Shown here one piece after another: positions 8,770 through 45,106 of a stretch of DNA of 64,000 nt. The notes under the pieces are model-generated. The model was given only the letters and a program-made list of their open reading frames with translations. It was not told the origin of the DNA and ran no database searches. A program made the translations under genes and the position numbers. The stretch spans positions 78,077-142,076 of the forward strand of contig JAYZXF010000017.1 of the NCBI GenBank assembly GCA_036141575.1, in the 5' to 3' direction. The stretch is from Pseudomonadota bacterium (GTDB taxonomy: Bacteria > Pseudomonadota > Alphaproteobacteria > UBA2136 > JAPKEQ01). Numbering within the stretch: the stretch's first letter is position 1; every line of letters starts with the position of its first letter.

Positions 8770-9582
8770 ATGAGACACACAGTATGGATTGCGTCGTTGG
8801 CGCTTTTGTGTGCAGTAAATGCGCAAGCTTCAGAAGGAATTGCAAGGCAAATTCAGTCTCTTAAAACAGCAATGGATGGGTTTGCAGCAACTGCAAGAGC
8901 GCAAATTGCGTCCAATACAGCGAGTATTACTGAAAACGTAAGAATTATTGACTCTTTTGAGACCTGTGCTGAAAGCGGGATGATGTATGCCCCTGATGAT
9001 GTGACAGCGAATGCAGATGGCTGTAAGCGCGTCACCTCAACACAAGCGCTCAATGAAATTGATGTGTCAAGCCAGCTTGTGGCAACAGGCCGGTGGCTAC
9101 ACCCTTATAACTTTAGTGAGCATTCATCAAATGGGTCTCCATCAAAACGTGGCCGTTCTTATGCGCAGATTTATCGTATTAATGATCCTGATAATTATAA
9201 CAACTACCTGATTTCTGGTAATCTTTTTGGTGGTGGTAGTCGTTCTCATGATGAGGGTCAGTTCAGTTGTTGGAATGCTAATACTTATGTAAAGATTGGT
9301 AGTGGTTGGGTTTCTACAAACGGTGATTCTATTAAAATTGAACAGCTTGCCAATGTGTCTAAAACGCGTGTGGCAGGCCATGTTTATAATGGCACATTCC
9401 AAAACCAAATTGCGATTGTAAAGCGTACATCTCATAGCTGTTATAATAACGGAGGGGATTTAAATATGGGAATGAAGGTTAATTACATTACGTATCACAA
9501 TGGTATGAATGCACGTGCATCTTATCATGATAGTGACTCGCGAGCTTCAACACTGCGTGTGACAAACATTATTGGTTTTTAA
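8770..9582 (+). CDS. secreted coiled-coil protein, 'EGxxRQxxSLK' family (F1)
   Basis: Signal peptide ...AVNAQA, then 'SEGIARQIQSLKTAMDGF', a Cys loop 'CAESGMMYAP...DGC', and a C-terminal domain paralogous to 12170-13015. Confidence 0.75.
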   Translation: MRHTVWIASLALLCAVNAQASEGIARQIQSLKTAMDGFAATARAQIASNTASITENVRIIDSFETCAESGMMYAPDDVTANADGCKRVTSTQALNEIDVSSQLVATGRWLHPYNFSEHSSNGSPSKRGRSYAQIYRINDPDNYNNYLISGNLFGGGSRSHDEGQFSCWNANTYVKIGSGWVSTNGDSIKIEQLANVSKTRVAGHVYNGTFQNQIAIVKRTSHSCYNNGGDLNMGMKVNYITYHNGMNARASYHDSDSRASTLRVTNIIGF

Positions 9583-16745: not shown

Positions 16746-16994
16746 ATGTCGAATCTTTGGACCCTTGTTGAAAAACAAGAAGCCCGTGCCACAAACCCCA
16801 ACCGTACCCGCGCTGAAGAACTGATCAGCCATGGCCAAAAAACGGGGCGCCTGTCCAACTCGGACTACCGTGACCTGAAGAGCGCACTGCGTTCTGGCAA
16901 TCTGTGCTATGAAGATTTCGGTGTTCACAAAGGCAATGTGAATGACTGGAATGCACGCTGGATGGGCGAAAACGGCTGTGGTCCTCGCGACTAA
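16746..16994 (+). CDS. hypothetical small protein (82 aa)
   Basis: ATG preceded by 'acggagga'. GC-rich relative to flanks. Terminator 17017-17042. Confidence 0.5.
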   Translation: MSNLWTLVEKQEARATNPNRTRAEELISHGQKTGRLSNSDYRDLKSALRSGNLCYEDFGVHKGNVNDWNARWMGENGCGPRD

Positions 16995-17016
16995 GCTGTG
17001 CGTAATCGAAAAAAAG

Positions 17017-17042
17017 AACCCCGTAGCTTATGCTGCGGGGTT
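17017..17042. terminator. bidirectional terminator
   Basis: AACCCCGTAGC-ttat-GCTGCGGGGTT (one G-U pair). Confidence 0.75.
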
Positions 17043-17055
17043 TCTTCTTGTCGTT

Positions 17056-17580
17056 TTATTTTCCGCGCACGTGAATGATGCGGATAATGGATGTGTCGCT
17101 CAGATCAGAGACATCGCCAAGCGACATGACTTGGCGCCGAATGAGGTTTCGAAGAAGTTCTTCTTCTTTATAGCTCACATCAATGAAAGGGTTGTGGCTG
17201 CTTCCAGCTTTGAAAAAAGTGCCGCCATATTGGTTGTCTTTGAGGGCAATATAAAAATATTTATGAGTCGCCGATTTCAAAAACTTCATTTCTTCAGATG
17301 TAAAGGGCACCAGTTCAATGCCGTTGTCCTTAGATTTTTCTGCCATGGCTTGCATGTAGCTTTTACCCTCTACCACACGGCAGATATTGGGTTTAAGTGC
17401 GCTATAGCCAGCGTTAATGACATCGCACAGTGCTTGCCACTCTCTCGGCGGAATGGGTTTAAGTTCATCGCCTTTGTGGGCATCGCGGTAATAACCGTGC
17501 TCTTCATTCACAAAGTAGAAACGCTGATGCGTATAAATGCGGGCGTAAACCAAAAGGGCGTCGTTGTTGAGTCGTTTCAT
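17056..17580 (-). CDS. hypothetical protein, 'WQxLC' paralog family (A)
   Basis: ATG at 17580 (MKRLNNDAL...) with GGAG upstream. Motif 'REWQALCDVI'. One of three tandem paralogs. Confidence 0.6.
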   Translation of the reverse strand: MKRLNNDALLVYARIYTHQRFYFVNEEHGYYRDAHKGDELKPIPPREWQALCDVINAGYSALKPNICRVVEGKSYMQAMAEKSKDNGIELVPFTSEEMKFLKSATHKYFYIALKDNQYGGTFFKAGSSHNPFIDVSYKEEELLRNLIRRQVMSLGDVSDLSDTSIIRIIHVRGK

Positions 17581-17676
17581 GGAGAGGCTCCAGAGAAAAA
17601 GAAAATCAAAGATATGAGTTGCCTTATTTTTACAAGGAGTAGAGAGGCTTGGCAAGGTGTTTCCTGCAAAACAAAA

Positions 17677-17692
17677 CAGCCCCGAAGGGCTG
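17677..17692 (-). terminator. rho-independent terminator
   Basis: CAGCCC-cgaa-GGGCTG. T-run on the minus strand. Confidence 0.7.
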
Positions 17693-17703
17693 TTTAGGTT
17701 CGT

Positions 17704-18276
17704 TTATTGGTCCCAGTAGACCCGCTGGTGCGGTTCTTGGCTCCAATAGTCTTCAAATGTGCCACCTGTATGGAGCAGGCCACGTTTGACGAGCTGCTGA
17801 ATGCCTTGTATCTCTGTGGGAGAAAGCTGGCTTTCGCGACGGCGAGGGGAACCTTCCTCTACCTCATAAAACCAGTGATAAATGCCCGTTTCCGGCTGAA
17901 AAATGAGAGCGCTTGCTTCACGGTGCTGAATGGCACGCAGAAGAGGAATCACGTTCTGTTCTTCTTTGCTGAAGGCGCGAGGGGTCACAAATGGTTCAGG
18001 GTTTGCGTGGATATAGTTCCCCAAAATAACCTGAAAAAGGGGCAGGCCTTCTACGTAACGGCCTTTTGTTGAGAGGGTTGTGAGTGCGTTACAAGCAAAG
18101 GCTTCGCACAGCACTTGCCAGTCTCGCAGGCTAATAGCAGGCAGTTTGGATTCACCAAGATGACCCTGCTTTTTAGGCTGGTTGATGTAAACGCCATGTG
18201 AGACTGTGATGAAGAATTGAACATCCATCTCATGGATGCGCTTCACCATTTCAGCAACCGCTTGAGATTGAGACAT
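17704..18276 (-). CDS. hypothetical protein, 'WQxLC' paralog family (B)
   Basis: ATG at 18276 (MSQSQAVAEM...). Motif 'RDWQVLCEAF'. Own terminator 17677-17692. Confidence 0.6.
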   Translation of the reverse strand: MSQSQAVAEMVKRIHEMDVQFFITVSHGVYINQPKKQGHLGESKLPAISLRDWQVLCEAFACNALTTLSTKGRYVEGLPLFQVILGNYIHANPEPFVTPRAFSKEEQNVIPLLRAIQHREASALIFQPETGIYHWFYEVEEGSPRRRESQLSPTEIQGIQQLVKRGLLHTGGTFEDYWSQEPHQRVYWDQ

Positions 18277-18364
18277 GTGAGATCCTTTCAGAAAAGGGAG
18301 GGAGATGTAAGATGTTGGGATTGTATTCAGTTTGGTGGTGTTATGCAAGTACACAAATGAAAAA

Positions 18365-18380
18365 CAGCCCCGAAGGGCTG
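18365..18380 (-). terminator. rho-independent terminator
   Basis: The identical CAGCCC-cgaa-GGGCTG hairpin. T-run on the minus strand. Confidence 0.7.
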
Positions 18381-18392
18381 GTAATAATCGCT

Positions 18393-19121
18393 TCAATCAT
18401 CTGCCGTCCAGAACGAAAAGATGCTCTGAGCTTCGAGGTGATAGTAAGGGGTCTTTTCACCAAGGGTGACAACGCCTTTATCAATCAGGCTTTGTAGAAT
18501 GACCATTTCATTCTCATCAAAGTCAAGCTCAACGCCCCAGTCGCCTGCAAACCAAACACCATGGTAGGGTTTGTTGTCTCTCCATTTATGGATCAGGCAG
18601 CAGGCATTCATATGCTCTGATGTAGAGTAAGCGTCATGGTCTTCCATGAGGTGAGAGGTGTCTTCGCCTGCATCCTCTGCGGCGTAGTACTCCTTAATGC
18701 ACCCCCGCTTAACATGCTGACCAGCAGGGAAGTGCCGTACGCGCGGGCCTGCGCCTGTCATGGCTTTAAGGAGCATGATCTCATCATTGCTGAGAGCTGT
18801 TGGCGAGGCTGGAGGCGGCGTTTCGGGCCTGTCGAGCGCGGACGCCTCAAGAATTTGATAGAATGTGGCGCCTTGCTCTTTCATGAGGCTAAGCTTCCAG
18901 TTACTATTTAAATGGGCGCGACCATCAGAGATGATTTTGCAGAGAAACTGCCACTCTTCAAGTGTAACGGGGAGTAGGTCGTCTTCATTGACGGGCACAT
19001 TTTCTTGGGTGTTCTGTGCAGCAAGTTTATATGCTCTTGTGTCTGACACAAAGTAGTAGCACAGCTGTTTTTCAATGCTGGCAACAATGTACTCTTCAAG
19101 GGCGATGCCTGAAAGTTTCAT
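18393..19121 (-). CDS. hypothetical protein, 'WQxLC' paralog family (C)
   Basis: Motif 'EEWQFLCKII'. Own terminator 18365-18380. Confidence 0.6.
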   Translation of the reverse strand: MKLSGIALEEYIVASIEKQLCYYFVSDTRAYKLAAQNTQENVPVNEDDLLPVTLEEWQFLCKIISDGRAHLNSNWKLSLMKEQGATFYQILEASALDRPETPPPASPTALSNDEIMLLKAMTGAGPRVRHFPAGQHVKRGCIKEYYAAEDAGEDTSHLMEDHDAYSTSEHMNACCLIHKWRDNKPYHGVWFAGDWGVELDFDENEMVILQSLIDKGVVTLGEKTPYYHLEAQSIFSFWTADD

Positions 19122-21685: not shown

Positions 21686-22255
21686 ATGCGTGATCAAAAT
21701 GGATACAGATCCGTAAAAGGAGAAATGGTCGTTGGATTTACCAACGACGGTAAGATGTATTCTACTCCTTTTAAGGAACATGACCCAAACTATGTTGGGC
21801 TTTCACATGAGGATAAAACAAGAGAACGTTACGTTGTGACGTTTAAAGAGCATGAAGATGGTAAGCTTGTTGTAAATTCACTTACACGTGACGATGCCTA
21901 TACAGATGAGATTAAAGCAGCCTTTGCAAGAGGTGAGGCCACAGAGCGTGATGTTGAGTATCATGTTAAGCCTGAAGGAAAAGAAATTCATGGTATGCTC
22001 CTTAAAGAAGGTCATGAAATTACCATGGTAGATCCAGATAAAGCAGGGGATTACCAAGCACAGCGAGAATTCGATGAAATGCGCGCAGATTTTAGTCAGT
22101 CACAGGAAGCTTTCGGTGAAAAAGTCCCTGTCACTGTAGATATGAATGAAATGGTTGTGACTCAATCACGCCAACAGTGGAGTGAAAGGGTGCACGGTAC
22201 AGAAGACCGTGATGCTGGTAACCAGCCAACTCGAGAATTTGAACAGTCTATGTAG
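21686..22255 (+). CDS. hypothetical acidic protein (189 aa)
   Basis: ATG with 'aggagg' upstream. Shares the module 'EDGKLVVNSLTRD' with the next gene. Confidence 0.55.
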   Translation: MRDQNGYRSVKGEMVVGFTNDGKMYSTPFKEHDPNYVGLSHEDKTRERYVVTFKEHEDGKLVVNSLTRDDAYTDEIKAAFARGEATERDVEYHVKPEGKEIHGMLLKEGHEITMVDPDKAGDYQAQREFDEMRADFSQSQEAFGEKVPVTVDMNEMVVTQSRQQWSERVHGTEDRDAGNQPTREFEQSM

Positions 22256-22276
22256 GCCTTAGGGAGGAACAGTAAA

Positions 22277-23194
22277 ATGTCTGAAAAGCACACAATGGTT
22301 TTTGAAAGAGATCTGGATAACGGAACTTTTGAAGCTTTGCACAAAGGTACAATGGAGCAGCGCGCAAAAGCGACTGAAGGTCAGGCTATGTCTGCTGCTG
22401 ATGCTCCAAACAAAGATACCTATTACATTACTGGTTCTAAAGGTGAGGATGGTGCATTTGTTATTGATGAAATTCATCGCTCTGGTGCATCTACAGTACG
22501 TTTTGCTCAACGCATGCAAGCTGATGAAGGCCTAAGCCAAGACCGTAGAAATGAAGAGTTTGAAGCTTATACACATCCAGAACATGTTGATGTTGAAGGT
22601 GTACGTTTTTCTGTTGGTGGCCCCATGTCTGGTGAGGTAAAGGACCTTGAACTTGCGACCTCTGACAGAGCGTATAAAACATTTGAAAATGCGGAGAAGT
22701 ATCTAGAGACTGCTGCCGTACATATTAACCATGGTGTTGGTGAAGCAGTACATGCGAATCAAAAAGCAGAGCGAGAGGCACCTGGACATGTATTTGAGAA
22801 GCAAATTGCATTTGGTCTAGAGCAAGATGGCCAGCTGTTTGCTGAAGAAGTATATAGCCAAGATCATATGCCTGGTAGAGATGAGTGTATGATGCAGCTT
22901 GGAAGAGATCATGACGGTCAAGTTGTTGTGACTCAGCTTTCTCGTAAAAGTGCTGTTTCAGGTGAGGAACCTCAGCTACAAGATTCAGTACATTTTATGG
23001 GGCAAAAGTTTGAGGTCGGCCAGCCGGTTGGAGAGCTAGAAGCGCATGGTAACTTTAGCCCGGAGCAAGCTGAAAAAGTACAGGCAGTGATGACGAATAT
23101 GCGTCATAGCTACATTCGTACAACAGGTGAAGCCCCAGAGCTTAAGCCGGGACGTGAGATGGAAATGCAAGTTGACGACGGTATGTCTCGTTAA
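22277..23194 (+). CDS. hypothetical acidic protein (305 aa)
   Basis: ATG with 'gggagg' upstream. Modules 'EDGAFVIDEIHRS' and 'HDGQVVVTQLSRK'. Terminator about 23208-23232. Confidence 0.55.
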   Translation: MSEKHTMVFERDLDNGTFEALHKGTMEQRAKATEGQAMSAADAPNKDTYYITGSKGEDGAFVIDEIHRSGASTVRFAQRMQADEGLSQDRRNEEFEAYTHPEHVDVEGVRFSVGGPMSGEVKDLELATSDRAYKTFENAEKYLETAAVHINHGVGEAVHANQKAEREAPGHVFEKQIAFGLEQDGQLFAEEVYSQDHMPGRDECMMQLGRDHDGQVVVTQLSRKSAVSGEEPQLQDSVHFMGQKFEVGQPVGELEAHGNFSPEQAEKVQAVMTNMRHSYIRTTGEAPELKPGREMEMQVDDGMSR

Positions 23195-28801: not shown

Positions 28802-29917
28802 ATGAGCTTAACATTTGGATTTGTAAAAGAAACAGCAAAAGGCGAGTGCCGTGTGGCGATGACGCCTGAAGGCATTGGTAAGCTTCTTAAAAGCTACCCA
28901 GACGCAAAGGCTGTGATTCAAAAAGGTGCCGGTGAGGGCGCAGATTTTTCTGATGACGCTTACAAGAAGGCAGGCGCGATTCTTGTTGCCAGCGCAGACG
29001 ATATCTACGCGACATCTGACATTGTGGTGCGCGTAACGCCACCAGCAATGGGTGTGGCTGCACAAATGAAAAAAGGTGCACTTCTACTTGGTAACCTAGA
29101 CCCATTTAACAGCACGAAGCTTTTTGCAGCTCTTGCTAAAAATAAAGTGAACGCGCTGTCTATGGAGCGCATTCCACGCACAAGCCGTGCACAGGCAATG
29201 GACACGCTATCGTCTCAGGCCTCACTTGCAGGCTACCGTGCGGTTATTGAAGCCTCTAGCCTCTACAAAGGCTACTTCCCACTGATGATGACCTCAGCGG
29301 GGAGCTCTCGCCCAGCAAACGTGATTGTGCTAGGTGTGGGTGTTGCGGGCCTTCAAGCCATTGCAACAGCGCGCCGCCTTGGTGCTGCTGTACAAGCGTT
29401 TGACGTACGCCCTGAAGTGAAAGAGCAGGTAGAAAGCCTTGGCGCTAAGTTTATTGATATTGACCTTGGTGAAGATGGTTCAGGTGAGGGCGGTTACGCC
29501 AAAGAGCTGAGCGCTGATGCCAAAGCAAAACAGCAAGCGGCTCTACAAGAGGTTCTGAAGAAGGCTGACGTTGTTGTGACAACAGCGCTGATTCCAGGCC
29601 GTGAAGCCCCTGAGCTGATTACAGAAGACACTGTAAAAGGTATGAAGGACGGTAGCATTATTGTAGATATGGCTGCTGCTGCAGGCGGTAACTGTAAGCT
29701 GACTGAAGCAAACAAAATTGTGATTCGCCATGGTGTTAGCCTTGTGGGTCACACTAACTACCCAAGCATGGCGGCAACGGATGCCAGCCACTTCTACGCA
29801 GGTAACGTACTGAACCTTATGGCGCTCCTTGTGAAGGATGGCCGTCTGGTTTACGACCGTGAAGACGATATTGTTGATGCGGCTCTGAGCGTGTTTGAAG
29901 GGAAGGTGGAATCATGA
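28802..29917 (+). CDS. pntAA: NAD(P) transhydrogenase subunit alpha part 1
   Basis: AlaDH/PNT fold with Rossmann motif 'VIVLGVGVAGLQAIATARRLGA'. Collinear with PntAA. Confidence 0.93.
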   Translation: MSLTFGFVKETAKGECRVAMTPEGIGKLLKSYPDAKAVIQKGAGEGADFSDDAYKKAGAILVASADDIYATSDIVVRVTPPAMGVAAQMKKGALLLGNLDPFNSTKLFAALAKNKVNALSMERIPRTSRAQAMDTLSSQASLAGYRAVIEASSLYKGYFPLMMTSAGSSRPANVIVLGVGVAGLQAIATARRLGAAVQAFDVRPEVKEQVESLGAKFIDIDLGEDGSGEGGYAKELSADAKAKQQAALQEVLKKADVVVTTALIPGREAPELITEDTVKGMKDGSIIVDMAAAAGGNCKLTEANKIVIRHGVSLVGHTNYPSMAATDASHFYAGNVLNLMALLVKDGRLVYDREDDIVDAALSVFEGKVES

Positions 29918-30351
29918 TGATGCCTTGGTATTTCTTTGCAAGCTGGGCTGTTGTTGGTATTGCCATCTTTAACATTGCAGCAAAAAGCATTACAGGCCTT
30001 ACGCCAGCGCTGTTTAACATGCTCTACAGTGGTGTGGTGCTACTTGTGTCTATTAGCTACTTTGCGTTTAGACACTTTACAGGTGAGGCACCGTTTAACG
30101 TGCCAACAGATGCAAAAAGCTGGATGTATGTGATTCTTGCTGGTGTGGGTGTAAACATGATTAACCTTGGTTATGCCGAAATGTATGGCCGTGGTGTTGA
30201 AATTAGTATCGGTGCCAATGCCATTATTATGGCCAGCCTCGTAACCGCCACTCTTATTGGTGTATTTGTATTTAAAGAGCAACTGTCGATGATGAAAGGC
30301 CTTGGTTTATTCCTTGGTGTCATCGCCCTTATTTGCTTCATGAAAGGATAG
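29914..30351 (+). CDS. small polytopic membrane protein inserted in the pnt operon (EamA/DMT-like, weak)
   Basis: ATGA overlap with the pntAA stop. Its stop lies 2 nt before the pntAB ATG. Four or five hydrophobic helices. Confidence 0.6.
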
Positions 30352-30824: not shown

Positions 30825-32240
30825 ATGCTAAATAGTTATTTTGAAACAATTAAAAACACTTTAAATCTAAATGCAGATGCCTTTGCGCTGCTGTATCTAG
30901 CTTGTGGTGTTCTCTTTATTCTTGGCCTGAAAGGTCTCTCACACCCACGCAGTGCTCGCCGTGGTAACTTGCTTGCGATGCTCGGTATGGGCCTTGCGAT
31001 TCTCACAACGCTGATGCATCCAAGTGTCACTGACTACACATGGATCGTTGCGGGTATTGTTGCTGGTGCCATTGTGGGTGTGCCGATTGCCCTTAAAATT
31101 AAAATGACCTCTATGCCGCAGCTTGTGGCAATCCTCAACAGCTTTGGTGGTCTTGCTGCAGCCCTTATTGGTATCGGTATGCACTTTGCGCTGGCTGGTG
31201 ACACAGCAGGGGACCGCACAGAGATCTTTATGGGTGCATGGATTGGTCTACTTACATTCAGTGGTTCTATCATCGCTTTCTCTAAGCTGAGTGGCTACAT
31301 GAAGAGCGCAGCGATTACCTTCCCAATGCAGCACGTGTTTAACCTACTTGTTGGTTTTGCGATGATTGCAACGGGTGTGCTCTACATTCAGCACGGTGAT
31401 GTCAACATGCTGTACGCATTTGCAGCCATCGCTTTTGTACTTGGTATTCTCATTATTATTCCAATCGGTGGCGCAGATATGCCAGTGGTTGTGAGCCTTC
31501 TCAACAGTTATAGTGGTTGGGCAGCTGTGGCAACAGGCTTCACGCTTGAAAACACGCTTCTTATCATCACTGGTTCTGTTGTCGGGTCTTCTGGTGCCAT
31601 CCTGACGTACGTAATGTGTAAAGCGATGAACCGTAGCTTCTTTAACGTTCTGCTTGGCGGTTTTGGTGCTGACGATGATGCAGGCGCAGCAGCTATGGCG
31701 ACAGGTGGTACAGTTAAGCAAGCCAGCGCAGACGATGCAGCCTTCATGATGGAAAACGCAAACAGCGTGGTTGTTGTACCGGGTTACGGTATGGCGGTGG
31801 CGCAAGCACAGCATGCTCTACGTGAGGTGATGGATATTCTGGATGAGAAGAACATTAAAACACGCTTTGCCATTCACCCTGTTGCGGGTCGTATGCCAGG
31901 GCATATGAACGTTCTTCTCGCTGAAGCAGATGTACCATATGAGAATGTGGCTGAAATGGATAATATCAACGCAGACTTCTCAACAACAGATGTTGTGTTG
32001 GTAGTGGGTGCAAACGATGTTGTGAACCCTGACGCCAAAAATGTGAAGAGCAGCCCACTATACGGTATGCCGATTCTTGAAGCGTACAAAGCGAAGACAG
32101 TTTACGTTGTAAAGCGTAGCATGAACGCAGGTTACGCAGGCGTAGATAACGCACTCTTTACAATGGATAACACCTCTATGATCTTTGGAGACGCCAAGGA
32201 AGTTGCAGAACGCCTTGCCGCCGCTCTTAAGATGAACTAG
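30825..32240 (+). CDS. pntB: NAD(P) transhydrogenase subunit beta
   Basis: 'VVVPGYGMAVAQAQH', 'FAIHPVAGRMPGHMNVLLAEA' and 'VLVVGANDVVNP'. Confidence 0.95.
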   Translation: MLNSYFETIKNTLNLNADAFALLYLACGVLFILGLKGLSHPRSARRGNLLAMLGMGLAILTTLMHPSVTDYTWIVAGIVAGAIVGVPIALKIKMTSMPQLVAILNSFGGLAAALIGIGMHFALAGDTAGDRTEIFMGAWIGLLTFSGSIIAFSKLSGYMKSAAITFPMQHVFNLLVGFAMIATGVLYIQHGDVNMLYAFAAIAFVLGILIIIPIGGADMPVVVSLLNSYSGWAAVATGFTLENTLLIITGSVVGSSGAILTYVMCKAMNRSFFNVLLGGFGADDDAGAAAMATGGTVKQASADDAAFMMENANSVVVVPGYGMAVAQAQHALREVMDILDEKNIKTRFAIHPVAGRMPGHMNVLLAEADVPYENVAEMDNINADFSTTDVVLVVGANDVVNPDAKNVKSSPLYGMPILEAYKAKTVYVVKRSMNAGYAGVDNALFTMDNTSMIFGDAKEVAERLAAALKMN

Positions 32241-32256
32241 AGAGATACAAAAGAAA

Positions 32257-32280
32257 AAGCCCCTGCAATAGCGGGGGCTT
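32257..32280. terminator. terminator after pntB
   Basis: AAGCCCCTGC-aata-GCGGGGGCTT. Confidence 0.75.
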
Positions 32281-32703
32281 TTATCGATCTTCAATGATCC
32301 AGAAAAATTTAGCAATTTCTGGAATCGGTTGGCCAAGGAGGCGTCTTTCAATGATGTGATCTGGCGCGTGCCCACTTATTCCAAAGAAATGGCAGGCGTC
32401 AAAATAGCCCATAAATCTAAGAATAAGAAGATGCCCAACAAACAAAAAGAAAGAGGGGACAATAAAAACCATAAGGAGTGCTTCACTATACCCAACAAGG
32501 AGGCTAGAAAAAATAAGCATCACCAGCAAAACACCTTCACCATAGGTTTTATATTTGCGAACTTCGAGGCCTTTTCGAATGGTCTTTTTATATTCAGGGA
32601 TTTTATCCCACATAAGGATTGCTCCTGAGACTTGGAAAAGGAAAACATATTTGAATGACTCGAGTGTAGGGGAGATAGGCTGGAATGAAAAGGGGAAAAG
32701 CAA
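32281..32703 (-). CDS. possible membrane protein (up to 140 aa)
   Basis: AT-rich ORF with two or three hydrophobic segments. Start is unclear. The antisense ORF 32329-32628 competes with it. Confidence 0.35.
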   Translation of the reverse strand: MLFPFSFQPISPTLESFKYVFLFQVSGAILMWDKIPEYKKTIRKGLEVRKYKTYGEGVLLVMLIFSSLLVGYSEALLMVFIVPSFFLFVGHLLILRFMGYFDACHFFGISGHAPDHIIERRLLGQPIPEIAKFFWIIEDR

Positions 32704-32743
32704 AACACCCCGCTTTTAGGCGGGATGTTCTGGTTGTCGAGTG

Positions 32744-33022
32744 TCAGGCGATGGCCCGGGCGATGGCAAATACATTGTAGTAATGCGGAATATCATACTG
32801 TTTGCACAGGGCATCTGCACGATTCCTAACGTGCATGAACTTGAGGTTCATGGCGAGTGCGGCCAAACCGGCAATCACAGCAATAGAGTTGTTGAAGCCC
32901 ATGAAGCTCAGAGCCACACTGATGGTCGCAATAACCACCAGAATGTAGGCGACAGTTTGAAACAGAACGCCTTTGGCGATGGCGCGACGATCTTCCATGG
33001 GGATGGGGTGTGCGTTGGACAT
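32744..33022 (-). CDS. small 2-TM protein, 'LCK..GI.P' paralog family (P1)
   Basis: ATG at 33022 with AAGGAGG 5 nt upstream. Two TM helices. Tail 'ALCKQYDIPHYYNVFAI'. Confidence 0.65.
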   Translation of the reverse strand: MSNAHPIPMEDRRAIAKGVLFQTVAYILVVIATISVALSFMGFNNSIAVIAGLAALAMNLKFMHVRNRADALCKQYDIPHYYNVFAIARAIA

Positions 33023-33151
33023 GTTGTCCTCCTTTTGAAAACGGTGCACTGAGTGAGAAAGTACCTATCATATGGTGATAGTTCTTTGAGAATTCAAGAC
33101 TTTCATAGATAGCAACACCCCACATAAATGCGGGGTGTTGTAGAAGTTCGC

Positions 33152-33430
33152 TTATTTGGATGTGCTTTTGATGACAGCAAAAACGTTCCAGTGGGGCTTG
33201 ATGCCGCGCTCTTTGCAGAGTTGGACGTATTTCCGGTCATTGCGGTGCGCATCCATTTTGATGCAAAGCGCGACGCCAATGATGAAATAGGGCAGGTACT
33301 GGTAGTAAATGCCGAACATCCAGTTGCTGAGCAGGTAGAACAGGGTAAAGCCGACCAGCGCGTAGTACATCAACAGGGTGCGAACACCTTTATTGAGCAC
33401 TTTGCGCTCAGACTTCGTGAGCTTAGCCAT
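33152..33430 (-). CDS. small 2-TM protein, paralog family (P2)
   Basis: Tail 'QLCKERGIKPHWNVFAV'. N-terminal 'LNKGV'. Clear paralog of P1. Confidence 0.65.
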   Translation of the reverse strand: MAKLTKSERKVLNKGVRTLLMYYALVGFTLFYLLSNWMFGIYYQYLPYFIIGVALCIKMDAHRNDRKYVQLCKERGIKPHWNVFAVIKSTSK

Positions 33431-33442
33431 AGGGATGATCCT

Positions 33443-33751
33443 TTAAAGCTTGATGCGAAAGGCTTTTACACCTTGCCAGATTGTGAGCACAGGGTTCCAA
33501 CCATACGTTTTGCATACAGAAAAGAAGTCTGTCATGGTGAAAACGCATGCAGTGACAGTGCTCAAGGCGATGGCAAGCGTGATAGTGTTAATCTTCAGGG
33601 CTTCCCAAATGCTTAAATCTGCAATGAAGCACATGTACAGCATTGAGATTACTGTCACAATGCACATTGCATGGATAGAAGCGGCAAAAGCAAATAACCC
33701 TTGCTTGAAAGCCTTGAACTCATCTTGCGAGAGAACTTCAGAGAGTTGCAT
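33443..33751 (-). CDS. small 2-TM protein, paralog family (P3)
   Basis: 'FKQGL' N-terminal motif and tail 'SVCKTYGWNPVLTIW'. Lies 12 nt upstream of P2. Confidence 0.6.
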   Translation of the reverse strand: MQLSEVLSQDEFKAFKQGLFAFAASIHAMCIVTVISMLYMCFIADLSIWEALKINTITLAIALSTVTACVFTMTDFFSVCKTYGWNPVLTIWQGVKAFRIKL

Positions 33752-33873
33752 GAGTTATCCTTTCAGGATGAAAACGGTGAACAGAATAGGTCGTATGCAA
33801 TATATGGTTCTTAAAATCTTTGTTTTCAAGCCTATAAAAGCAAAACACCCCCGAAGGGGTGGCTTGCTCGCTT

Positions 33874-34158
33874 TTATAGCCAGTTTGGAAGACCAAACTT
33901 ACGGAACAAAATTGCAAGATTTTCATTCCCTTTAAGGCCATACTCTTGGCAAGCTTCTTTAAAAAAGATGCTGCGGAGTTTCCAGTGGAAGAAAGCGAGT
34001 TGCGCAGCGATGCATAGCAGGATGGTCAGTGTTGCGGTAAGGCTCAACAGACCGAAGTAATTGCCAGCCACCATCATGGCACTCAGCGCAGAGCTGAACA
34101 TAAACTGCATAATTTTCAACTCAATTCCTTGTTGGATGGAGCTTTCAGTAATTGTCAT
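33874..34158 (-). CDS. small 2-TM protein, paralog family (P4)
   Basis: ATG at 34158 with GAGG 6 nt upstream. 'IQQGI' and tail 'EACQEYGLKGNENLAIL'. Confidence 0.55.
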   Translation of the reverse strand: MTITESSIQQGIELKIMQFMFSSALSAMMVAGNYFGLLSLTATLTILLCIAAQLAFFHWKLRSIFFKEACQEYGLKGNENLAILFRKFGLPNWL

Positions 34159-34286
34159 AACTGTCCTCAACGGTAAACAGGGTGATTTTATTAAATTATG
34201 GTTATGGTTTATGATTTTTCAATGTGAGGTAGCAGAATCTTTTTGAGTTGTGCTAAACTTTGCCAACTAAAAAAGAAAGAATAAAT

Positions 34287-34601
34287 ATGTCTCTCAAGCT
34301 GGTTTACACAACATGTAGCGCACAAGATAACCCTCATGCATGGGCAGAGGACCTCATTGGCCAAGGCCTTGCGGCTTGCGTAAATATTTTGCCAACGGTC
34401 GATAGTGTTTACATGTGGCAAGGCCAAGTGGCTGATGCCCAAGAACGCCCATTGATTATTAAAACACGTGCTGATAAGATCGCGGCGCTGGAAAATGAGA
34501 TCAAACGACTCAGCCGTAATGAAAACCCAGCCTTCATGATTTTAGATATGACAGCAGGAGAGGAATTTGGCACATGGATGCATCAGGTATTGGGTTCATA
34601 G
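34287..34601 (+). CDS. cutA: divalent-cation tolerance protein CutA
   Basis: 'LVYTTCS...LIGQGLAACVNILPTVDSVYMWQGQV...PLIIKT' follows the CutA1 pattern. ATG at 34287. Confidence 0.85.
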   Translation: MSLKLVYTTCSAQDNPHAWAEDLIGQGLAACVNILPTVDSVYMWQGQVADAQERPLIIKTRADKIAALENEIKRLSRNENPAFMILDMTAGEEFGTWMHQVLGS

Positions 34602-35059
34602 ACCAGCTTGTACTGCAAGGCTTTTTTAGAGGGACAATCGTAGCAGCGACTCTCATTATACTTTGCACATTTGTGCATTTCTATACGTTTGCATCACTTA
34701 ATAAAGTGTTGAAAAAGATTGAGAAGAAGCATCACCTTAAGCAAACACTTGTTTTGCTCTTCGCACTCTTTTTCGCGCATAGCATTCAGGTTTGGTTATT
34801 CGCTGGCGGTTATATGATACTGATCAACGGTTTTGAAATTGGCCATTTTGTGACAGAGAGTGGTGATATGTATCACGCAGGCTTTGTTGATGCGTTGTAT
34901 TACTCTATCGTGACTTATACCTCTCTTGGCTTTGGGGATATTATTCCAACACAGGCAGTGCGCCTTCTTACAGGAATTGAGGCCTTGCTTGGTCTCTTGA
35001 TGATTGCTTGGTCAGCATCGTTTACATACATCTCTATGGAAAAACGCTGGCGCAACTAA
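34574..35059 (+). CDS. two-TM potassium channel (Ion_trans_2-like)
   Basis: Selectivity filter 'TYTSLGFGD' between two TM helices. Overlaps the cutA 3' end by 28 nt. Confidence 0.8.
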   Translation: MDASGIGFIDQLVLQGFFRGTIVAATLIILCTFVHFYTFASLNKVLKKIEKKHHLKQTLVLLFALFFAHSIQVWLFAGGYMILINGFEIGHFVTESGDMYHAGFVDALYYSIVTYTSLGFGDIIPTQAVRLLTGIEALLGLLMIAWSASFTYISMEKRWRN

Positions 35060-36529: not shown

Positions 36530-38041
36530 CTATCTTTCTATAGCTTGTTCTTGGTCTTCTAACCAATCTGAAACCCGTACAGAACCATCAGGATAAGCTT
36601 CCGCCATTGGAGTATGATAAAAGTAAACAGTCTCTTCTGGCGGTGCACCTTCTAAGCTTTCAAGCTGGCTTGTATCAAAGTCAAGGCATCCAGTAATATC
36701 TTGGGCAACACCTTTCAAATCACGAATATTGGTTTTGCCAGCATAGTAAGCGCCCTTGACTACCTGTGGTCCTCCTTCTAGAGACTCAAGTGGGGTACAA
36801 GAGCAATCAAAAGAGCCCTCAACAATTTCTGGGCAGCCTTTTAAGGTTGTAAGCTGTGTTTCTGACAGGTTCAAACCTTTATTGCGGACATCGCGCATAT
36901 CTGGTAGCTGCATAATCTGCTGGCCTTTGAGGTCAATCACATCTGGCACATGAATTGTACCGTCTTCATGCTCCGTGTAAGGCATCTGGAAGAAATCTAA
37001 AAACTCTTCAGCTGTACAAGCACCATGGCGAATATAAGAAGGGATGAGCTTTGCTTTTTCACCTGTGACTGGTGTGAGCGTTCCTTCATCATTTAGCTTA
37101 AACTCGCTGATTCCATCTGTTTGTATGTTATTGATCTTTTTAAAGCTGCCTGTTAGGCCTGCATTATGTTCTGCACAAAAAGCATCCATGGCTTTACAGA
37201 AGTACATATCACTAATGCCGTAATCCTTATCAGCCAGTAGAGCAACTTGGCCTTCATGGTTCATAAAAGGTTTCAGCAGGATGCGAGACCTGGGGTTATG
37301 AAGGTCAGGGTCGCTCTTTGTGGTTAGGTAAGCGATCATGCTGCCTTCTTCTGCGAGGGGAATCAGTTTATCTGCGTAACCATCTTCTGAGCGTTCATCA
37401 ATGCAGCTTGTCCAACGGCGTGCTGTGCTGGCGCGGGCGATGTCACCCGGGTTACGGCTTAAAACCACCATACCATCTTTTTGTAGACCGCCTGTCGCTT
37501 TAGACCAGTCTTTTAGGAGGTCATCTTCACCAAGGCGTCTGAGAAGTTTGCCAACTTTGGTATTGTTCTTACCGCCGTCATCTGTGGCAGTGCGCTCTTC
37601 CATGTTTGTTTCGTAGCCGTGCTCAGCAAGGGCGTCTGTTACTTTACGAGATGTGCGTGTCATGAAAGGTGAATCTTCCACCTCAAACTCAAAGTAAAGG
37701 CGGTCATTGCCTTCACCAAAGATTTTCTCAAGGTGAGGGGCGCGTGACATGGGCATATTGCGCACATGATTCAGCGTTTTAGATTCAATATTTTCTGGAA
37801 GGTCTGTTATTTCTTGCTGAATAGCCTCAGTGTCAAGTTCTGCCATAGATGTGAGGGCTTGAACCGAAGGAAGCTTGCCTCTGCTTTCTAAAAAAGCATC
37901 CGCATACGCGAGGCTGTAATCCATGAGGGCGTCTTTTTTCTCAGGAAAGTGAGCGCATGCCTCATCTACGCGGCGTTCAATTTCATCCGCGACCTCAAAA
38001 CCAAGAGCCGTAACCTCTCTGTTTTCTAAGGGTTTTTGCAT
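36530..38041 (-). CDS. hypothetical protein with C-terminal LRR-like ~22-aa repeats (503 aa)
   Basis: C-terminal 'LTTLKGCPEIVEGSFDCSCTPLESLEGGPQVVKGAYYAG...LESLEGAP'. The central domain is unknown. Confidence 0.6.
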   Translation of the reverse strand: MQKPLENREVTALGFEVADEIERRVDEACAHFPEKKDALMDYSLAYADAFLESRGKLPSVQALTSMAELDTEAIQQEITDLPENIESKTLNHVRNMPMSRAPHLEKIFGEGNDRLYFEFEVEDSPFMTRTSRKVTDALAEHGYETNMEERTATDDGGKNNTKVGKLLRRLGEDDLLKDWSKATGGLQKDGMVVLSRNPGDIARASTARRWTSCIDERSEDGYADKLIPLAEEGSMIAYLTTKSDPDLHNPRSRILLKPFMNHEGQVALLADKDYGISDMYFCKAMDAFCAEHNAGLTGSFKKINNIQTDGISEFKLNDEGTLTPVTGEKAKLIPSYIRHGACTAEEFLDFFQMPYTEHEDGTIHVPDVIDLKGQQIMQLPDMRDVRNKGLNLSETQLTTLKGCPEIVEGSFDCSCTPLESLEGGPQVVKGAYYAGKTNIRDLKGVAQDITGCLDFDTSQLESLEGAPPEETVYFYHTPMAEAYPDGSVRVSDWLEDQEQAIER

Positions 38042-40188: not shown

Positions 40189-40527
40189 ATGGAAACTATC
40201 AAAGTTTCAGGCGTTTGTCATGAGAAAGTTCTTAAAAACGGTGAAGACTTCTTCTTTGAAGTGCCCAAGCACCCTGCCAACAAAATGTTTGCAGATCGCT
40301 TGCAGCACCTTGGCTTTGAGCGTTCCCCTCTGATTGCTCATGACGATTGTGATCGGTTCTATATGCCTGAAGGCACAGACTTGGCGCAAGTCACGCTGGA
40401 ATATCAGGAATACTTCAAAGCTGGCGAAGCGCCGACACCAGCCATTGTTCCACTGGGGCACTTGTCGCCCACGGTACAGGATAAGTCTCGTGGTATGGAT
40501 GTCGAAGACTGGCCGCCTGAGAATTGA
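40189..40527 (+). CDS. hypothetical protein (112 aa)
   Basis: First ATG of ORF 40165-40527. Terminator 40545-40571. Confidence 0.45.
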   Translation: METIKVSGVCHEKVLKNGEDFFFEVPKHPANKMFADRLQHLGFERSPLIAHDDCDRFYMPEGTDLAQVTLEYQEYFKAGEAPTPAIVPLGHLSPTVQDKSRGMDVEDWPPEN

Positions 40528-41268: not shown

Positions 41269-42108
41269 ATGAGGTTATTTGCAATTGTATGTATGTGTTG
41301 CGCACTGTTTGTCAGTGTGGCAGCCGTTTCTCAAACACGTGCAGGTGAAGGACTTTCACGCCAACTTCAATCTGTAAAATCAATGCTTGAGAGTTTCCGT
41401 AGCCATATAGATGGTGAAATCGCTCGTGTGGATAGTGAAATTAATACAGTGGATAGCAGAGTAGATGCTGCAAATACTAGAATGGATACCATGGACGGTC
41501 GTATGGATGGTATAGACACTCAGATTGGTGGCCTAAACTCGAGTATTAATTCACACGATAACCGTATTACAGCCCTAGAAAATGGGGAAACAGGTGTGCA
41601 AGTTTACAGAAACTGTGCACAACGTAATGTGACATGGGGCAGTGGAAATTGCCGAGGTACGCAGGGGCCCATTCCTCATGGCACAAGTATAACGGTTAGA
41701 GACACCGTTCAAGGTGATATTTGTACAAATAGATATCAATATGTTGGCTATGCTGTGTATAGTTGTAATGATGGTGTGGTAACGCGTAACGGGCAAGCTT
41801 GTCAGCGAACAGATTTCTACAATGAAAATCTATGTGAATCTGGCAGTGGTGGCGATAGCTATGCAAACTGTCAAGGTACAACAAGGACATGGTCAGAAAC
41901 GTATAATGGTCTAACTTCAACCTGTTCTGGATCAATTGGTTCTGTGCCACATGGTACAACCGCTACAGCAACAGACCCTAGAACTGGTTGTGACCGTCGA
42001 GACTTCACAGGTGGATCATCGACTTGGCTATGTGATAATGGTACTCTCAGAAGACAAGGTACTGCAACATGTAGAACCTGGGGCAGCTGGGGTAGCGACT
42101 GTCGATAA
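41269..42108 (+). CDS. secreted coiled-coil family member with 2 x 4-Cys modules (F3)
   Basis: Signal peptide, 'GEGLSRQLQSVKSMLESF', an Lpp-like repeat 'VDSEINTVDSRVDAANTRMDTMDGRMD', and Cys modules at 41614-41802 and 41869-42072. Ends in 'DCR'. Confidence 0.75.
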   Translation: MRLFAIVCMCCALFVSVAAVSQTRAGEGLSRQLQSVKSMLESFRSHIDGEIARVDSEINTVDSRVDAANTRMDTMDGRMDGIDTQIGGLNSSINSHDNRITALENGETGVQVYRNCAQRNVTWGSGNCRGTQGPIPHGTSITVRDTVQGDICTNRYQYVGYAVYSCNDGVVTRNGQACQRTDFYNENLCESGSGGDSYANCQGTTRTWSETYNGLTSTCSGSIGSVPHGTTATATDPRTGCDRRDFTGGSSTWLCDNGTLRRQGTATCRTWGSWGSDCR

Positions 42109-42288
42109 TTGAATAAATGAAAGCAGAAAAGGAGGGCACATGCCCTCCTTTTTGCAACAGGGGATATATTTATTTTTCTTGAAGTATCAATGTATTGCAA
42201 TTTTTACTCACCTATTTGTCAGGGATATGTTTATTTAAAGTTGTGGTTATATATATAAATAAAATGTGATTTATAAAAGGGGTTTAAA

Positions 42289-43374
42289 ATGAGAGCTTTT
42301 CCGATAGTAATGATTTTATCCTGTTTAGTTTTACTAACAGGCGTAGCTGGTGCGCAGAGCACGCGCTCTGGTGAAGGTATTGCAAGGCAGTTAATGTCTG
42401 TTAAAAGTATGATTGAAAATTTTGCTGATAACATCCGCACACGTGTGCAGACCGTTGAAAATGAAATGGATGCGGTAGAAACACGTATGGATACAGTGGA
42501 AGCTGATGTTGCAAGCGTACTTGCAACCGTTGCAACACATGAAACACGGTTGAGCTCGCATGATTCATCTCTATCTGGCCATGGTCGCCGTATTCGAGCA
42601 CTCGAAGAGCGCGAGCCAACAGGTGGTGGAGGTAGTACAGCACCAACACCAAGTGCGTGTAACGGTAGAAACATGTCATGGGGAGGGGGATGTAGTGCTT
42701 ATGTACAATCTCTACCTGATGGGGGTGCTGTCGTTCTGAGAGATCAAGTTGCTGGTGATGTATGTACAAATAGACAGCAGTATGTTGGTCAAGTTCGTGT
42801 GGCTTGTAACAATGGTCAAATTTCTACAAAGAACGCCTCTTGTGAGCTGAGAAACGTTTATAACGCAACTCAGTGTAGTGGTGGCACAACACCAACACCG
42901 AAGAAGAGATGTGCAGCAAAAGATGTGAGCTGGAAGAACAATGCTGGTACAGTCACATGTCGTGGTAGAATTGTTGCAGCTGATCATGATTCAACACGTC
43001 GTGTAACATTTGATAACAACAATACAAAACCTGGTGGAAAACGTATTACTGGTGCAGCAAACTTTATTTGTGACAACGGTGTGTTCAAACGTACATCTAA
43101 GAACTGTAAAGAAACTGTTAACCCTGAGCCTCCTAAGCCTTGTGCAGGCAAGTCTGTGAGTTGGACTAGTAATGGTGTTACATGTCGAGGAACTGTTTCG
43201 AATACGCCACATGGTTTAACTTCAAGTGTAACAGACCCTAACCGAACACGAGAGTGTGAGAACATTATAGATACAACAGGTAGCGCAAGCTTCAGGTGTA
43301 CAAATGGATCGTTCAAGAAGGTCTCTGGCTCTTGCAGGCAGGTACGGAGTCGTCGAACAGGTGACTGTCGATAA
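42289..43374 (+). CDS. secreted coiled-coil family member with 3 x 4-Cys modules (F4)
   Basis: Signal peptide, 'GEGIARQLMSVKSMIENF', a coiled coil, and three Cys modules between 42658 and 43335. Ends in 'DCR'. Confidence 0.75.
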   Translation: MRAFPIVMILSCLVLLTGVAGAQSTRSGEGIARQLMSVKSMIENFADNIRTRVQTVENEMDAVETRMDTVEADVASVLATVATHETRLSSHDSSLSGHGRRIRALEEREPTGGGGSTAPTPSACNGRNMSWGGGCSAYVQSLPDGGAVVLRDQVAGDVCTNRQQYVGQVRVACNNGQISTKNASCELRNVYNATQCSGGTTPTPKKRCAAKDVSWKNNAGTVTCRGRIVAADHDSTRRVTFDNNNTKPGGKRITGAANFICDNGVFKRTSKNCKETVNPEPPKPCAGKSVSWTSNGVTCRGTVSNTPHGLTSSVTDPNRTRECENIIDTTGSASFRCTNGSFKKVSGSCRQVRSRRTGDCR

Positions 43375-44104: not shown

Positions 44105-45106
44105 TTATTGAGGTTCACCATTATGCTCTTTAGAGAGTGGGTATTTTCCTTTTTTGTCTGGAATAGAGCCGTGGACAAGAATACCGTTTGCATAGTAAGT
44201 GTGGTCACCATCTAGCATAAGGTTGTAGAGGCGGCGGTCTTCTTCTTCCTGTGGGACAATCATGATGGATTCAATAAGCTGACGCTTGCCTTGTGCCATA
44301 ATGAGTGTTTGGCCAATTTCAAGCTGACCAATGTTACCAGAAAGTTGGTCGTAAGCTTCTTTCTCAGCCATATCTGGGTTAAGGGCCTTCCAGCCGTCTG
44401 TTGTCATAAGAGGGTGGTTATCTGTTGTAAAGGCAGTTTCACCGTTAATCTCAATAAGGTGCTGGTTTTTACCTTTGCGCAGAAGAGGGCGGTCAAGGTC
44501 TAGCACGGTGTTAATTGCACCGTCACGGCCCATCAGCTTATCACCAATTTTAACTTTATGAATTTCAAGGTCACTACCATCCGCCATAAGTACTTTTGTT
44601 TCAGCCGTAAAGCATGAGCCGCGGCAAACTGCTGCACAATTTTCCATACTATTAGGCGTTAGGTTTGTATTACAGCGGCAGGCACATCTCCACCCCACCC
44701 AAACTTGGTCGCTTGGGCATGTAGGAGGCGTGTAGGTGCCACCACCTGTTGGGCCTTCAATATCTGTATGTGTTACACAGTTATTGCTATCAGCATCTGG
44801 ATGGTTTGGCCAATACAGGCTTGTTGTTGATCTGTTATGGCAGAACGTTTGCCTATTAATAACTGTCTGGAGGTCTGAAATATCCGTTTGTGCTGTTGAG
44901 AGCTGTGTTTCTAGAGTGCTAATTCTAGAGCTCATGCCAGTAGACATGCTTTCCATCATGTTTTTAAGGGAGAGAACTTGCCTTGAAAGTGCTTCACCCG
45001 CACTTGTTTGTGCCCATACATTGGCAGCTAAAATGATTGTGCAAAGAGAGAGAAAGATTGCAATGGATTTAAGTATTTTACCCTTGAAAAACATAGTGGC
45101 CACCAT
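44105..45106 (-). CDS. secreted coiled-coil family member with C-terminal Hint/BIL domain (F6)
   Basis: 'AGEALSRQVLSLKNMMESM', loop 'CHNRSTTSLYWPNHPDADSNNC', then Hint blocks 'CFTAETKVLMADG', 'TTDNHPLMT' and 'HTYYANGILVHGS'. The start is at 45106 or 45094. Confidence 0.75.
   Translation of the reverse strand: MVATMFFKGKILKSIAIFLSLCTIILAANVWAQTSAGEALSRQVLSLKNMMESMSTGMSSRISTLETQLSTAQTDISDLQTVINRQTFCHNRSTTSLYWPNHPDADSNNCVTHTDIEGPTGGGTYTPPTCPSDQVWVGWRCACRCNTNLTPNSMENCAAVCRGSCFTAETKVLMADGSDLEIHKVKIGDKLMGRDGAINTVLDLDRPLLRKGKNQHLIEINGETAFTTDNHPLMTTDGWKALNPDMAEKEAYDQLSGNIGQLEIGQTLIMAQGKRQLIESIMIVPQEEEDRRLYNLMLDGDHTYYANGILVHGSIPDKKGKYPLSKEHNGEPQ

Follow-up and report, generated by a model that had tools for sequence, protein, structure and literature searches.

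The depolarising toxins of the type VII secretion system of Staphylococcus aureus are encoded next to tandem immunity paralogs that are membrane proteins (see also PMC12744356), and CdiI of Escherichia coli EC93 is an immunity protein with two transmembrane (TM) segments. Here we describe an array of small membrane-protein genes that resembles such loci in part. It lies between cutA and pntB in a stretch of 64,000 nucleotides, referred to as the window (positions 78,077 to 142,076 of contig JAYZXF010000017.1, assembly GCA_036141575.1), of an uncultured marine alphaproteobacterium, and comprises the four minus-strand genes P4, P3, P2, and P1 and a probable fifth one, P0. Orphan immunity genes of type VI secretion systems (T6SS) and of Rhs loci are established for Serratia and Pantoea (PMC10539506, PMC9796082), and variable arrays of bacteriocin and immunity genes are established as well (10.1101/2022.05.27.493805). 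Similar to the orphan immunity arrays, which may lack the cognate toxin, the array described here consists of tandem, divergent small genes on one strand, differs in content between strains, and encodes integral membrane proteins, as is the case for immunity against membrane-acting toxins. However, neither a toxin nor a secretion gene nor a toxin remnant is located near the array and no similarity to an immunity family is found, the genes have their own promoter and terminator, and a protective function could be assigned by analogy only. The pneumococcal blp locus is likewise a variable array of small genes with small membrane proteins at a fixed chromosomal site, which differs between strains and has repeated regulatory sequences before its units, whereas it belongs to a Gram-positive organism and carries bacteriocins with double-glycine (GG) leaders, the BlpAB exporter, and BlpRH quorum sensing beside the array, none of which is seen here (10.1101/2022.05.27.493805, PMC4860687, PMC6422914).

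The array genes and their protein family

A sequence-only reading of the window had proposed an array of four small paralogs on the minus strand at 32744-34158, and the open reading frames (ORFs) are present as described (Table 1), with tail sequences exactly as quoted there. Independent gene callers gave the same products of 94, 102, 92, and 92 amino acids (aa) for P4, P3, P2, and P1 on Logan as well as on NCBI assemblies, and each of the four ATG codons is preceded at a distance of 5-10 nt by a sequence resembling a Shine-Dalgarno (SD) motif (AGGA/GGAGG); a 101-aa form of P1 starting at a GTG codon is unlikely. The array proteins share only 16-24% pairwise identity, and the best BLASTP pair, P1 and P2, reaches an E-value of 8e-4 in a database of five sequences. 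Since this pairwise similarity is so weak, leave-one-out profiles were built, in which each of P1-P5 was the top match outside the training set among the 713 stop-to-stop ORFs of the window, with E-values of 1e-3 to 4e-7; P5 is a member from a sister strain and reached 5e-7. Judged by these profiles, P1-P4 are true but very distant paralogs, and the paralogy is further supported by the non-coding flanks, which are shared as well. The region 32281-32703 had been taken as an AT-rich neighbour of the array, which is correct with respect to its composition, but it contains P0, which can be regarded as a probable fifth member of the family. P0 is called with 110 aa from the start MWDK by the gene callers on those assemblies and has the same build: its basic N-terminus contains RKGL, a pair of hydrophobic segments follows, and the tail motif is DACHFFGISG, so that the invariant Gly and Cys are kept. 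No further copies of the family were found elsewhere in the window. As had been noticed from the sequence, P1 and P2 are richer in GC than the AT-rich neighbour (0.52 and 0.50 vs 0.40 for 32281-32613). Their GC content at third codon positions (GC3) is 0.63 and 0.73, respectively, compared to approximately 0.45 in the neighbouring genes, and is foreign-looking.

All members of the family have a size of 90-110 aa and, according to hydropathy and charge, are composed of a K/R-rich N-terminus of 15-26 residues, an uncharged two-lobed hydrophobic stretch, which spans 34-53 residues and has a polar turn in its centre, and a K/R-rich tail. This uncharged stretch in every member together with helix pairs in AlphaFold models confirms that two TM helices are predicted per protein, as had been proposed. 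The AlphaFold models of P1 and P0 show two long helices connected by a turn of 3-4 residues, followed by a short helix bearing the Cys and, beyond a turn at G-[ILW]-x, by another helix; for P1 the mean confidence score (pLDDT) is 70, with helices at residues 9-40, 45-75, and 84-91, and for P0 it is 79. Following the positive-inside rule, both termini would be cytoplasmic and the proteins would form hairpins in the inner membrane. Across the seven subfamilies, represented by 11 sequences, conservation is complete only for M1, a single N-terminal Gly, and the Cys of the tail, which is part of a helix-turn-helix-like C-x3-G-[ILW] motif. The two motifs given in the sequence-only reading are to be relaxed: of the N-terminal '[KQ][KQ]G[VLI]' a constant [KQS]-G-[VLIA] remains, as P1 has AKGV and P2 has NKGV, and of the tail motif 'C[KQ]..G[IWL][KN]P' a constant C-x3-[GDQ]-[ILW] remains, as P1 has D in place of G and P4 has G in place of the final P.

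Comparison of orthologs revealed ratios of nonsynonymous to synonymous substitution rates (dN/dS) of 0.09-0.36 in six pairs of array genes, in contrast to 0.02-0.10 for pntB, cutA, and the gene of a cyclic nucleotide monophosphate (cNMP)-binding protein. The value is 0.09 for P4 compared to strain B, 0.15 for P2 compared to a Tara scaffold (L051), 0.36 for P1 compared to its ortholog P0005 (78% identity), and 0.16-0.31 for P0. These ratios indicate that the array ORFs code for proteins and evolve fast, and on the same codon comparison the array genes are under purifying selection.

No significant or recurrent match was obtained in Pfam, NCBIfam, PHROGs, and PADLOC, neither with single members nor with all 8-11 members, and a profile search against PDB sequences gave no match. 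The family thus matches no known housekeeping membrane protein. Searches for homologs by word index returned only the proteins themselves and near-orthologs, and an exhaustive HMMER search of 1.84 billion representative proteins added only three long repetitive proteins. Two of these are spurious translations of repeats and one has repeat ends resembling DUF4214, and they were not accepted as relatives. An identity with DUF4214 was rejected as well, since the tail motif matches the repeat ends 'EFxxLCxxYGIxxG' in an 846-aa protein (P0008; E 4e-4) over about 15 residues only and no member matches Pfam DUF4214. Scans of JGI metagenomes with the P0 profile and the 5' untranslated region (5'UTR) of the P1 type gave nothing, no relatives are present in IMG/VR, GenBank phages, and PLSDB plasmids, and fold searches returned generic helical hairpins only. 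Against a profile built from the other members, true paralogs score approximately 16-26 bits, which is far below significance in databases of such size, and therefore these results mean that there are no close relatives, since distant members would be invisible. The family is a new protein family restricted to one lineage of an uncultured marine alphaproteobacterium, whereas strain-variable arrays of small membrane proteins are already known in general. The NCBI labels within this lineage disagree and read 'Pseudomonadota bacterium', 'Alphaproteobacteria bacterium ANT-120', and 'uncultured Magnetococcales'.

Expression cassettes and strain variation of the cutA-pntB interval

The upstream regions of P4, P3, P1, P5, and P6, the latter two being members from relatives, and of their orthologs in other strains contain a -35-like box CTTGAA, a -10-like box CATATA or CATAAT, the element ACCGTT, and an SD motif. 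ACCGTT is located about 10-25 nt before the SD motif and does not vary among eight upstream regions, which represent five sequence types and also cover another species. P2 lacks a separate promoter in the window; its start lies 12 nt past the stop codon of P3, and it is probably translationally coupled to or co-transcribed with P3. The GC-rich hairpins that had been reported between the units are present at 32701-32732, 33113-33140, and 33846-33861, with folding energies (dG) of -21 to -22 kcal/mol and z-scores of -3.3 to -4.8. Those after P4, P2, and P1 share a GGGGTGTT arm, two of the three are followed by T-runs, and the hairpins between the genes are transcription terminators. The block that terminates P1 also follows P5 in strain B, and the promoter block of P1 drives a different ORF, P6, on Tara scaffold L051. 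From this pattern of motifs, the islet is built of self-contained expression cassettes, each with promoter-like boxes, a 5'UTR with ACCGTT, an SD motif, an ORF, and a GC-rich hairpin terminator. A search of positions 32000-34500 against Rfam gave only terminator-like matches below threshold.

Table 1. Genes and putative regulatory features of the cutA-pntB interval, in window positions.
Feature	Position	Strand	Description
cutA	34287-34601	+	left anchor; CutA1 by NCBIfam and Pfam; divergent from P4; syntenic in all related loci
P4 promoter-like region and 5'UTR	34159-34235	-	TTGAAA-16-CATAAT at 34222-34195; ACCGTT at about 34169-34174; SD GAGGA
P4	33874-34158	-	94 aa from ATG; family member; first array gene, adjoins cutA; leave-one-out E 2.4e-6
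P4 terminator hairpin	33828-33873	-	core 33846-33861, then TTTTGCTTTT; dG -21.8, z -3.25
P3 promoter-like region and 5'UTR	33752-33830	-	CTTGAAA; CATATAT; CACCGTTT at 33772-33779; SD AAAGGA
P3	33443-33751	-	102 aa; family member; leave-one-out E 3e-4; uncharged segments at residues 17-44 and 54-74
P2	33152-33430	-	92 aa; family member; leave-one-out E 4e-7
Hairpin after P2	33113-33140	-	12-bp perfect stem without clear T-run; dG -21.0, z -4.3; kept on Tara scaffold E (L051)
P1 promoter-like region and 5'UTR	33023-33100	-	CTTGAAT; CATATGAT; CACCGTTT at 33039-33046; SD GGAGGA
P1	32744-33022	-	92 aa from ATG; family member; leave-one-out E 7e-4
P1 terminator hairpin	32701-32732	-	followed by TTTTGCTTTT; dG -21.4, z -4.8
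P0	32281-32613	-	110 aa, start MWDK at 32613; probable fifth member, most divergent, longer tail; leave-one-out E 0.004-0.04
Bidirectional terminator	32255-32282	.	common to P0 (-) and pntB (+); dG -17.1, z -4.6
pntB	30825-32240	+	right anchor; Pfam PNTB; convergent with P0; 94-99% aa identity in relatives

The octamer CACCGTTT, which is present in two of the array 5'UTRs, occurs 11 times in the window compared to 1.75 expected copies, and none of 100 shuffled sequences reached 11. The copies inspected beyond these two lie within coding sequence, and one is located about 70 nt upstream of an Hsp70-like gene (the sites include 40236-40243); no wider regulon of the octamer emerged among the inspected window copies.

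The interval between cutA and pntB exists in at least five configurations with seven subfamilies across the related contigs, with P5 and P6 being added by the relatives. The window has the order P4-P3-P2-P1-P0, and strain B (GCA_035092365.1 and others) has P4-P5-P0 within flanks that are 97% identical, P5 being a new member of 102 aa. In strain C (L009/L054) cutA is followed by P1' and P0' together with an unrelated membrane gene of 143 aa, and in species D (L011, the 'Alphaproteobacteria bacterium ANT-120'), of which pntB is 94% identical, the interval contains P5' and P0''. Tara scaffold E (L051) harbors P4, then a promoter of the strain B P5 type driving P2, and then a promoter of the P1 type together with the first four codons driving the new P6. 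P0 is the only unit in every complete configuration seen, and P3 is missing in B, C, D, and E. Compared to strain B, the window loses homology just past the P4 terminator and regains it exactly at the stop codon of P1/P5. Altogether, the breakpoints map to the stop codon of P1/P5, to the position just past the P4 terminator, to the SD motif, and to the position after codon 4 of P1/P6. Metagenome contigs break inside the array, and a syntenic 'Magnetococcales' contig begins 103 nt before cutA. Synonymous divergence (dS) between the window and strain C is 0.28 for pntB, 0.45 for cutA, and 0.30 for P1, compared to 1.67 for P0 and 1.6 for the gene of a K+ channel. The configurations, the breakpoints, the contrasts in dS, the contig breaks, and GC3 taken together show, on the level of sequence comparison, that ORFs are gained, lost, and replaced via recombination in conserved regulatory flanks and that alleles of very different ages stand side by side.

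The exchange of ORFs appears to proceed by homologous recombination in these flanks. Integron arrays also consist of small ORFs in the same orientation with hairpin-forming spacers and strain-variable content. In contrast to them, the hairpins here are GC-rich terminators of 26-32 nt with perfect stems instead of attC sites and the cassettes have promoter-like boxes. A classification as integron cassettes was rejected, because no attC sites are present and the terminator stems are followed by promoter-like boxes ahead of the ORFs. No integrase domain was found among the approximately 45 window ORFs that were scanned for domains or among the precomputed Pfam matches of the neighbours, which cover part of the window ORFs.

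The K+ channel gene (34574-35059, plus strand) adjoins cutA, and its product shares only 52% aa identity with that of L011, while those of cutA and pntB share 87-94%. Since it is far more diverged than its neighbours, recombinational mosaicism reaches beyond the array of small genes. The spacer between P0 and pntB is variable as well: strain C carries there the 143-aa gene with multiple TM segments (L009 1155-1586, L054 2663-3094), strain B has a call for a 42-aa ORF (L004 11290-11418), and the window has neither. For L004 10428-10718 the NCBI annotation of GCA_035092365.1 gives an ORF of 96 aa that runs opposite to P5, and in two other assemblies with identical DNA the family member of 102 aa is called instead; the call on the opposite strand is probably an annotation error.

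A possible immunity or exclusion function and its alternatives

We tentatively consider the array as a repertoire of orphan immunity or exclusion-type proteins of the inner membrane, a possibility that is drawn by analogy. In such a system every variant would be located in the inner membrane, where it would neutralise a single membrane-acting toxin of competitors or a single component of an invading phage. The constant motifs of the N-terminus and the tail may then provide a common scaffold or docking surface, the divergent sequence may confer specificity, and frequency-dependent selection would drive the turnover of cassettes in the population. A protective repertoire fits best because of the turnover, the deep allelic divergence, and the membrane location. 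Arrays of this kind had been called typical of immunity-protein sets, and this holds true insofar as the interval behaves like a conflict locus, with content that differs at 97% identical flanks, new subfamilies, and contig breaks; the assignment to immunity itself is by analogy and not by a match to a known family. Thus, of the features of an immunity system, a polymorphic and strain-variable repertoire is observed, but neither a cognate toxin, adjacent to the array or traceable in the interval, its flanks, or the two-partner secretion pair of the window, nor family similarity.

Several points weigh against a protective role. For none of the members was a match to a known immunity, defence, or holin family obtained in Pfam, NCBIfam, PADLOC, PHROGs, or PDB. 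Moreover, no toxin, bacteriocin, T6SS, toxin domain of contact-dependent growth inhibition (CDI), peptidase-containing transporter (PCAT), or phage gene was found beside the array or among the scanned window ORFs. Calculated separately for the parts of the proteins, dN/dS is 0.2-0.58 in the hydrophobic hairpin and 0.04-0.33 in the polar termini, with no value above 1. As the strongest constraint is found in the termini and selection on the TM hairpin is no more than relaxed, there is no signal of positive selection on a recognition surface within the membrane, and the pattern fits a membrane anchor with a short functional peptide. Furthermore, about two thirds of the scanned ORFs have no Pfam domain at E<=0.01 (e.g., 1775-2488, 8770-9582, 16942-19121, 21686-23194, and 41269-43374), and because most of them lack such domains and the lineage is poorly sampled, an orphan family is nothing special here. 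The K+ channel gene beside the array is mosaic as well (dS 1.6), so that recombination at this site need not be driven by the array. Finally, the related intervals were recovered by exact-protein look-ups and one genome scan, and only a handful of related contigs exist.

The absence of an evident cognate toxin had been stated from the sequence and was corroborated, as a TpsB/TpsA pair approximately 17 kb away is the sole secretion system of the window and has neither a recognisable toxin domain nor a small downstream gene. TpsB (50849-52951, plus strand) contains POTRA and ShlB domains, and TpsA (53017-57291, plus strand; 1424 aa) contains a TPS domain only. TpsA was dismissed as a CDI toxin, because it has no VENN motif and no toxin domain, its last 399 aa are without Pfam match, and the next gene is on the opposite strand. 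The neighbouring cNMP-binding protein was likewise dismissed as part of a bacteriocin transport system, as it reaches 23.6 bits with the 'bacteriocin-type transport-associated' model, for which the cut-off is 161, a match that reflects just the cNMP domain.

The array may also consist of accessory small proteins of the inner membrane that play no role in conflict, e.g., stress proteins or proteins that modulate or chaperone membrane complexes, with the cytoplasmic N-terminus and tail docking to a common cytoplasmic or membrane partner and with copies and alleles drifting by duplication, deletion, and local recombination. This explanation, which we regard as somewhat doubtful, accounts for the data almost as well as immunity does. 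The distribution of constraint between termini and hairpin described above is in line with it; the flanks are housekeeping genes, as the neighbours comprise pntAA, pntAB, pntB, cutA, the K+ channel, the cNMP-binding protein, and Nfu; P0 is kept in every complete configuration; the K+ channel gene is equally deep in allelic divergence; and the common ACCGTT element of the 5'UTRs suggests shared regulation. However, modulators of core complexes would not be expected to turn over by presence and absence as fast as is observed between flanks of 97% identity, and the at least seven subfamilies with less than 25% identity as well as the foreign-looking GC3 of P1 and P2 also argue against it.

As an extension of the protective repertoire, the terminator with the GGGGTGTT arm, the promoter boxes, ACCGTT, the SD motif, and the first codons might act as portable homology arms of a modular cassette system independent of any integrase, by which hyperdiverse membrane-hairpin ORFs would be shuffled, so that each cell draws a small set from a large population repertoire protecting against membrane-targeting toxins or phages. 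This would be an undescribed immunity or exclusion family together with a defined mechanism of its turnover, and in this full form it is unlikely.

Class II holins and pinholins are proteins of 70-100 aa with two TM helices, an N-in/C-in topology, and a charged C-terminal tail. The array proteins share their size, the two TM helices, the predicted topology, and the charged, basic tail, and could be holin-like or other membrane-permeabilising effectors, which would oligomerise to depolarise or perforate the inner membrane during abortive infection, programmed lysis, or the release of vesicles or gene transfer agents. We consider this distinctly improbable. The likeness is generic rather than specific for holins, and the five tandem paralogs are found without a lysis cassette or phage context and without a significant profile match. 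The designation 'holin/antiholin-like' given to the array before was not borne out, since neither an endolysin nor a spanin nor a phage or sensor gene is nearby, no viral or phage relatives exist in IMG/VR or GenBank, and the best PHROG holin matches have E-values of 0.056 and 0.3 with single members only (each one of eight). These matches, like that to SLATT_1 (E 0.06) and the poor fold scores with viral SLATT proteins, would speak for such effectors, but all of them are below threshold and none recurs across members, PADLOC detects nothing, and Pfam gives no holin. Furthermore, five constitutive-looking promoters for lethal proteins would need a control mechanism, and none is visible. A SLATT domain as such was also rejected, as SLATT_1 scores 13.3 bits with P4 only, compared to a cut-off of 41, and the viral SLATT matches of Foldseek have E-values of about 1.5 and TM-scores of about 0.3; SMODS, SLOG, TIR, or similar sensor or enzyme domains were not found in the array neighbours.

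Even less probable is a function as secreted effectors that insert into a host membrane, similar to the chlamydial Inc proteins, which would require an intracellular symbiont of a marine eukaryote. Inc proteins have a two-lobed uncharged hydrophobic domain of 40-60 residues, occur in tandem as divergent lineage-specific sets, and need a type III secretion system (T3SS) and an intracellular vacuole. The array proteins resemble them in their two-lobed uncharged domain of 34-53 residues between polar termini and in their tandem arrangement, extreme divergence, and restriction to one lineage. The window is moreover rich in orphan proteins and contains a protein with leucine-rich repeat (LRR)-like repeats and an Hsp70-like protein, and a contig of 1.26 Mb in the sister strain would fit a small genome. 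But neither a T3SS nor a vacuole, which are both known for producers of Inc proteins, is known for this organism, no gene of a T3SS or type IV secretion system is present in the window, nothing indicates an intracellular lifestyle, the contigs originate from seawater-type metagenomes (Tara, ANT), and the positive-inside pattern is exactly that of an ordinary bacterial inner-membrane protein. Hydrophobic bacteriocin-like precursors, of which an N-terminal leader of 15-18 residues would be cleaved after the invariant Gly, are scarcely credible, as the loose resemblance to a double-glycine leader (the Gly and a hydrophobic residue at position -4 in all seven subfamilies, an acidic one near -8 in most) is opposed by K, Q, or S instead of G or A at position -2, by the lack of a C39-peptidase ABC exporter among the scanned ORFs, by a predicted helix that runs through the putative cleavage site, and by a TM hairpin of 40 residues with a basic tail that is atypical of exported microcins; on the first two of these grounds, double-glycine-leader bacteriocins and class II microcins were rejected. 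Each of the holin-like, Inc-like, and bacteriocin explanations fails at least one defining test or has no supporting context.

Other window genes and meaning of the family

Apart from the array, further ORFs of the window deserve mention. A 582-aa ORF (5967-7715, minus strand) combines an N-terminal Cro/C1-type helix-turn-helix (HTH) domain (residues 31-84, E 4e-13) with a catalytic domain of the RuBisCO large chain (residues 234-536, E 3.5e-62), and this fusion is an unusual architecture for a RuBisCO-like protein. An ORF of 333 aa (44105-45106, minus strand) contains a Hom_end-associated, intein-like Hint domain at residues 165-206. The LRR-like protein is encoded by an ORF of 503 aa without Pfam match (36530-38041, minus strand), which has the C-terminal repeat 'L.G.P..V.G.F.C......L.SLEG.P' and 79% identity in L011 and L012. 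Within the transhydrogenase operon, a hydrophobic ORF of 145 aa without Pfam domain (29914-30351, plus strand) is located between pntAA and the PNTB_4TM gene and is kept in strain B and L011.

If the neutral explanation of drifting accessory proteins is true, the array represents a fast-evolving, lineage-specific family of small membrane proteins, and it would caution that divergent paralogs of approximately 90 aa, which score only about 25 bits, escape even exhaustive searches. If the array is indeed a protective repertoire, its small membrane proteins would make up a new immunity or exclusion family in a little-known lineage of marine alphaproteobacteria. It would then also be a clean natural case of a repertoire that is renewed by recombination at promoter and terminator flanks and not by the machinery of mobile elements, and it could be a hint that the community contains membrane-acting toxins or phages yet to be discovered.

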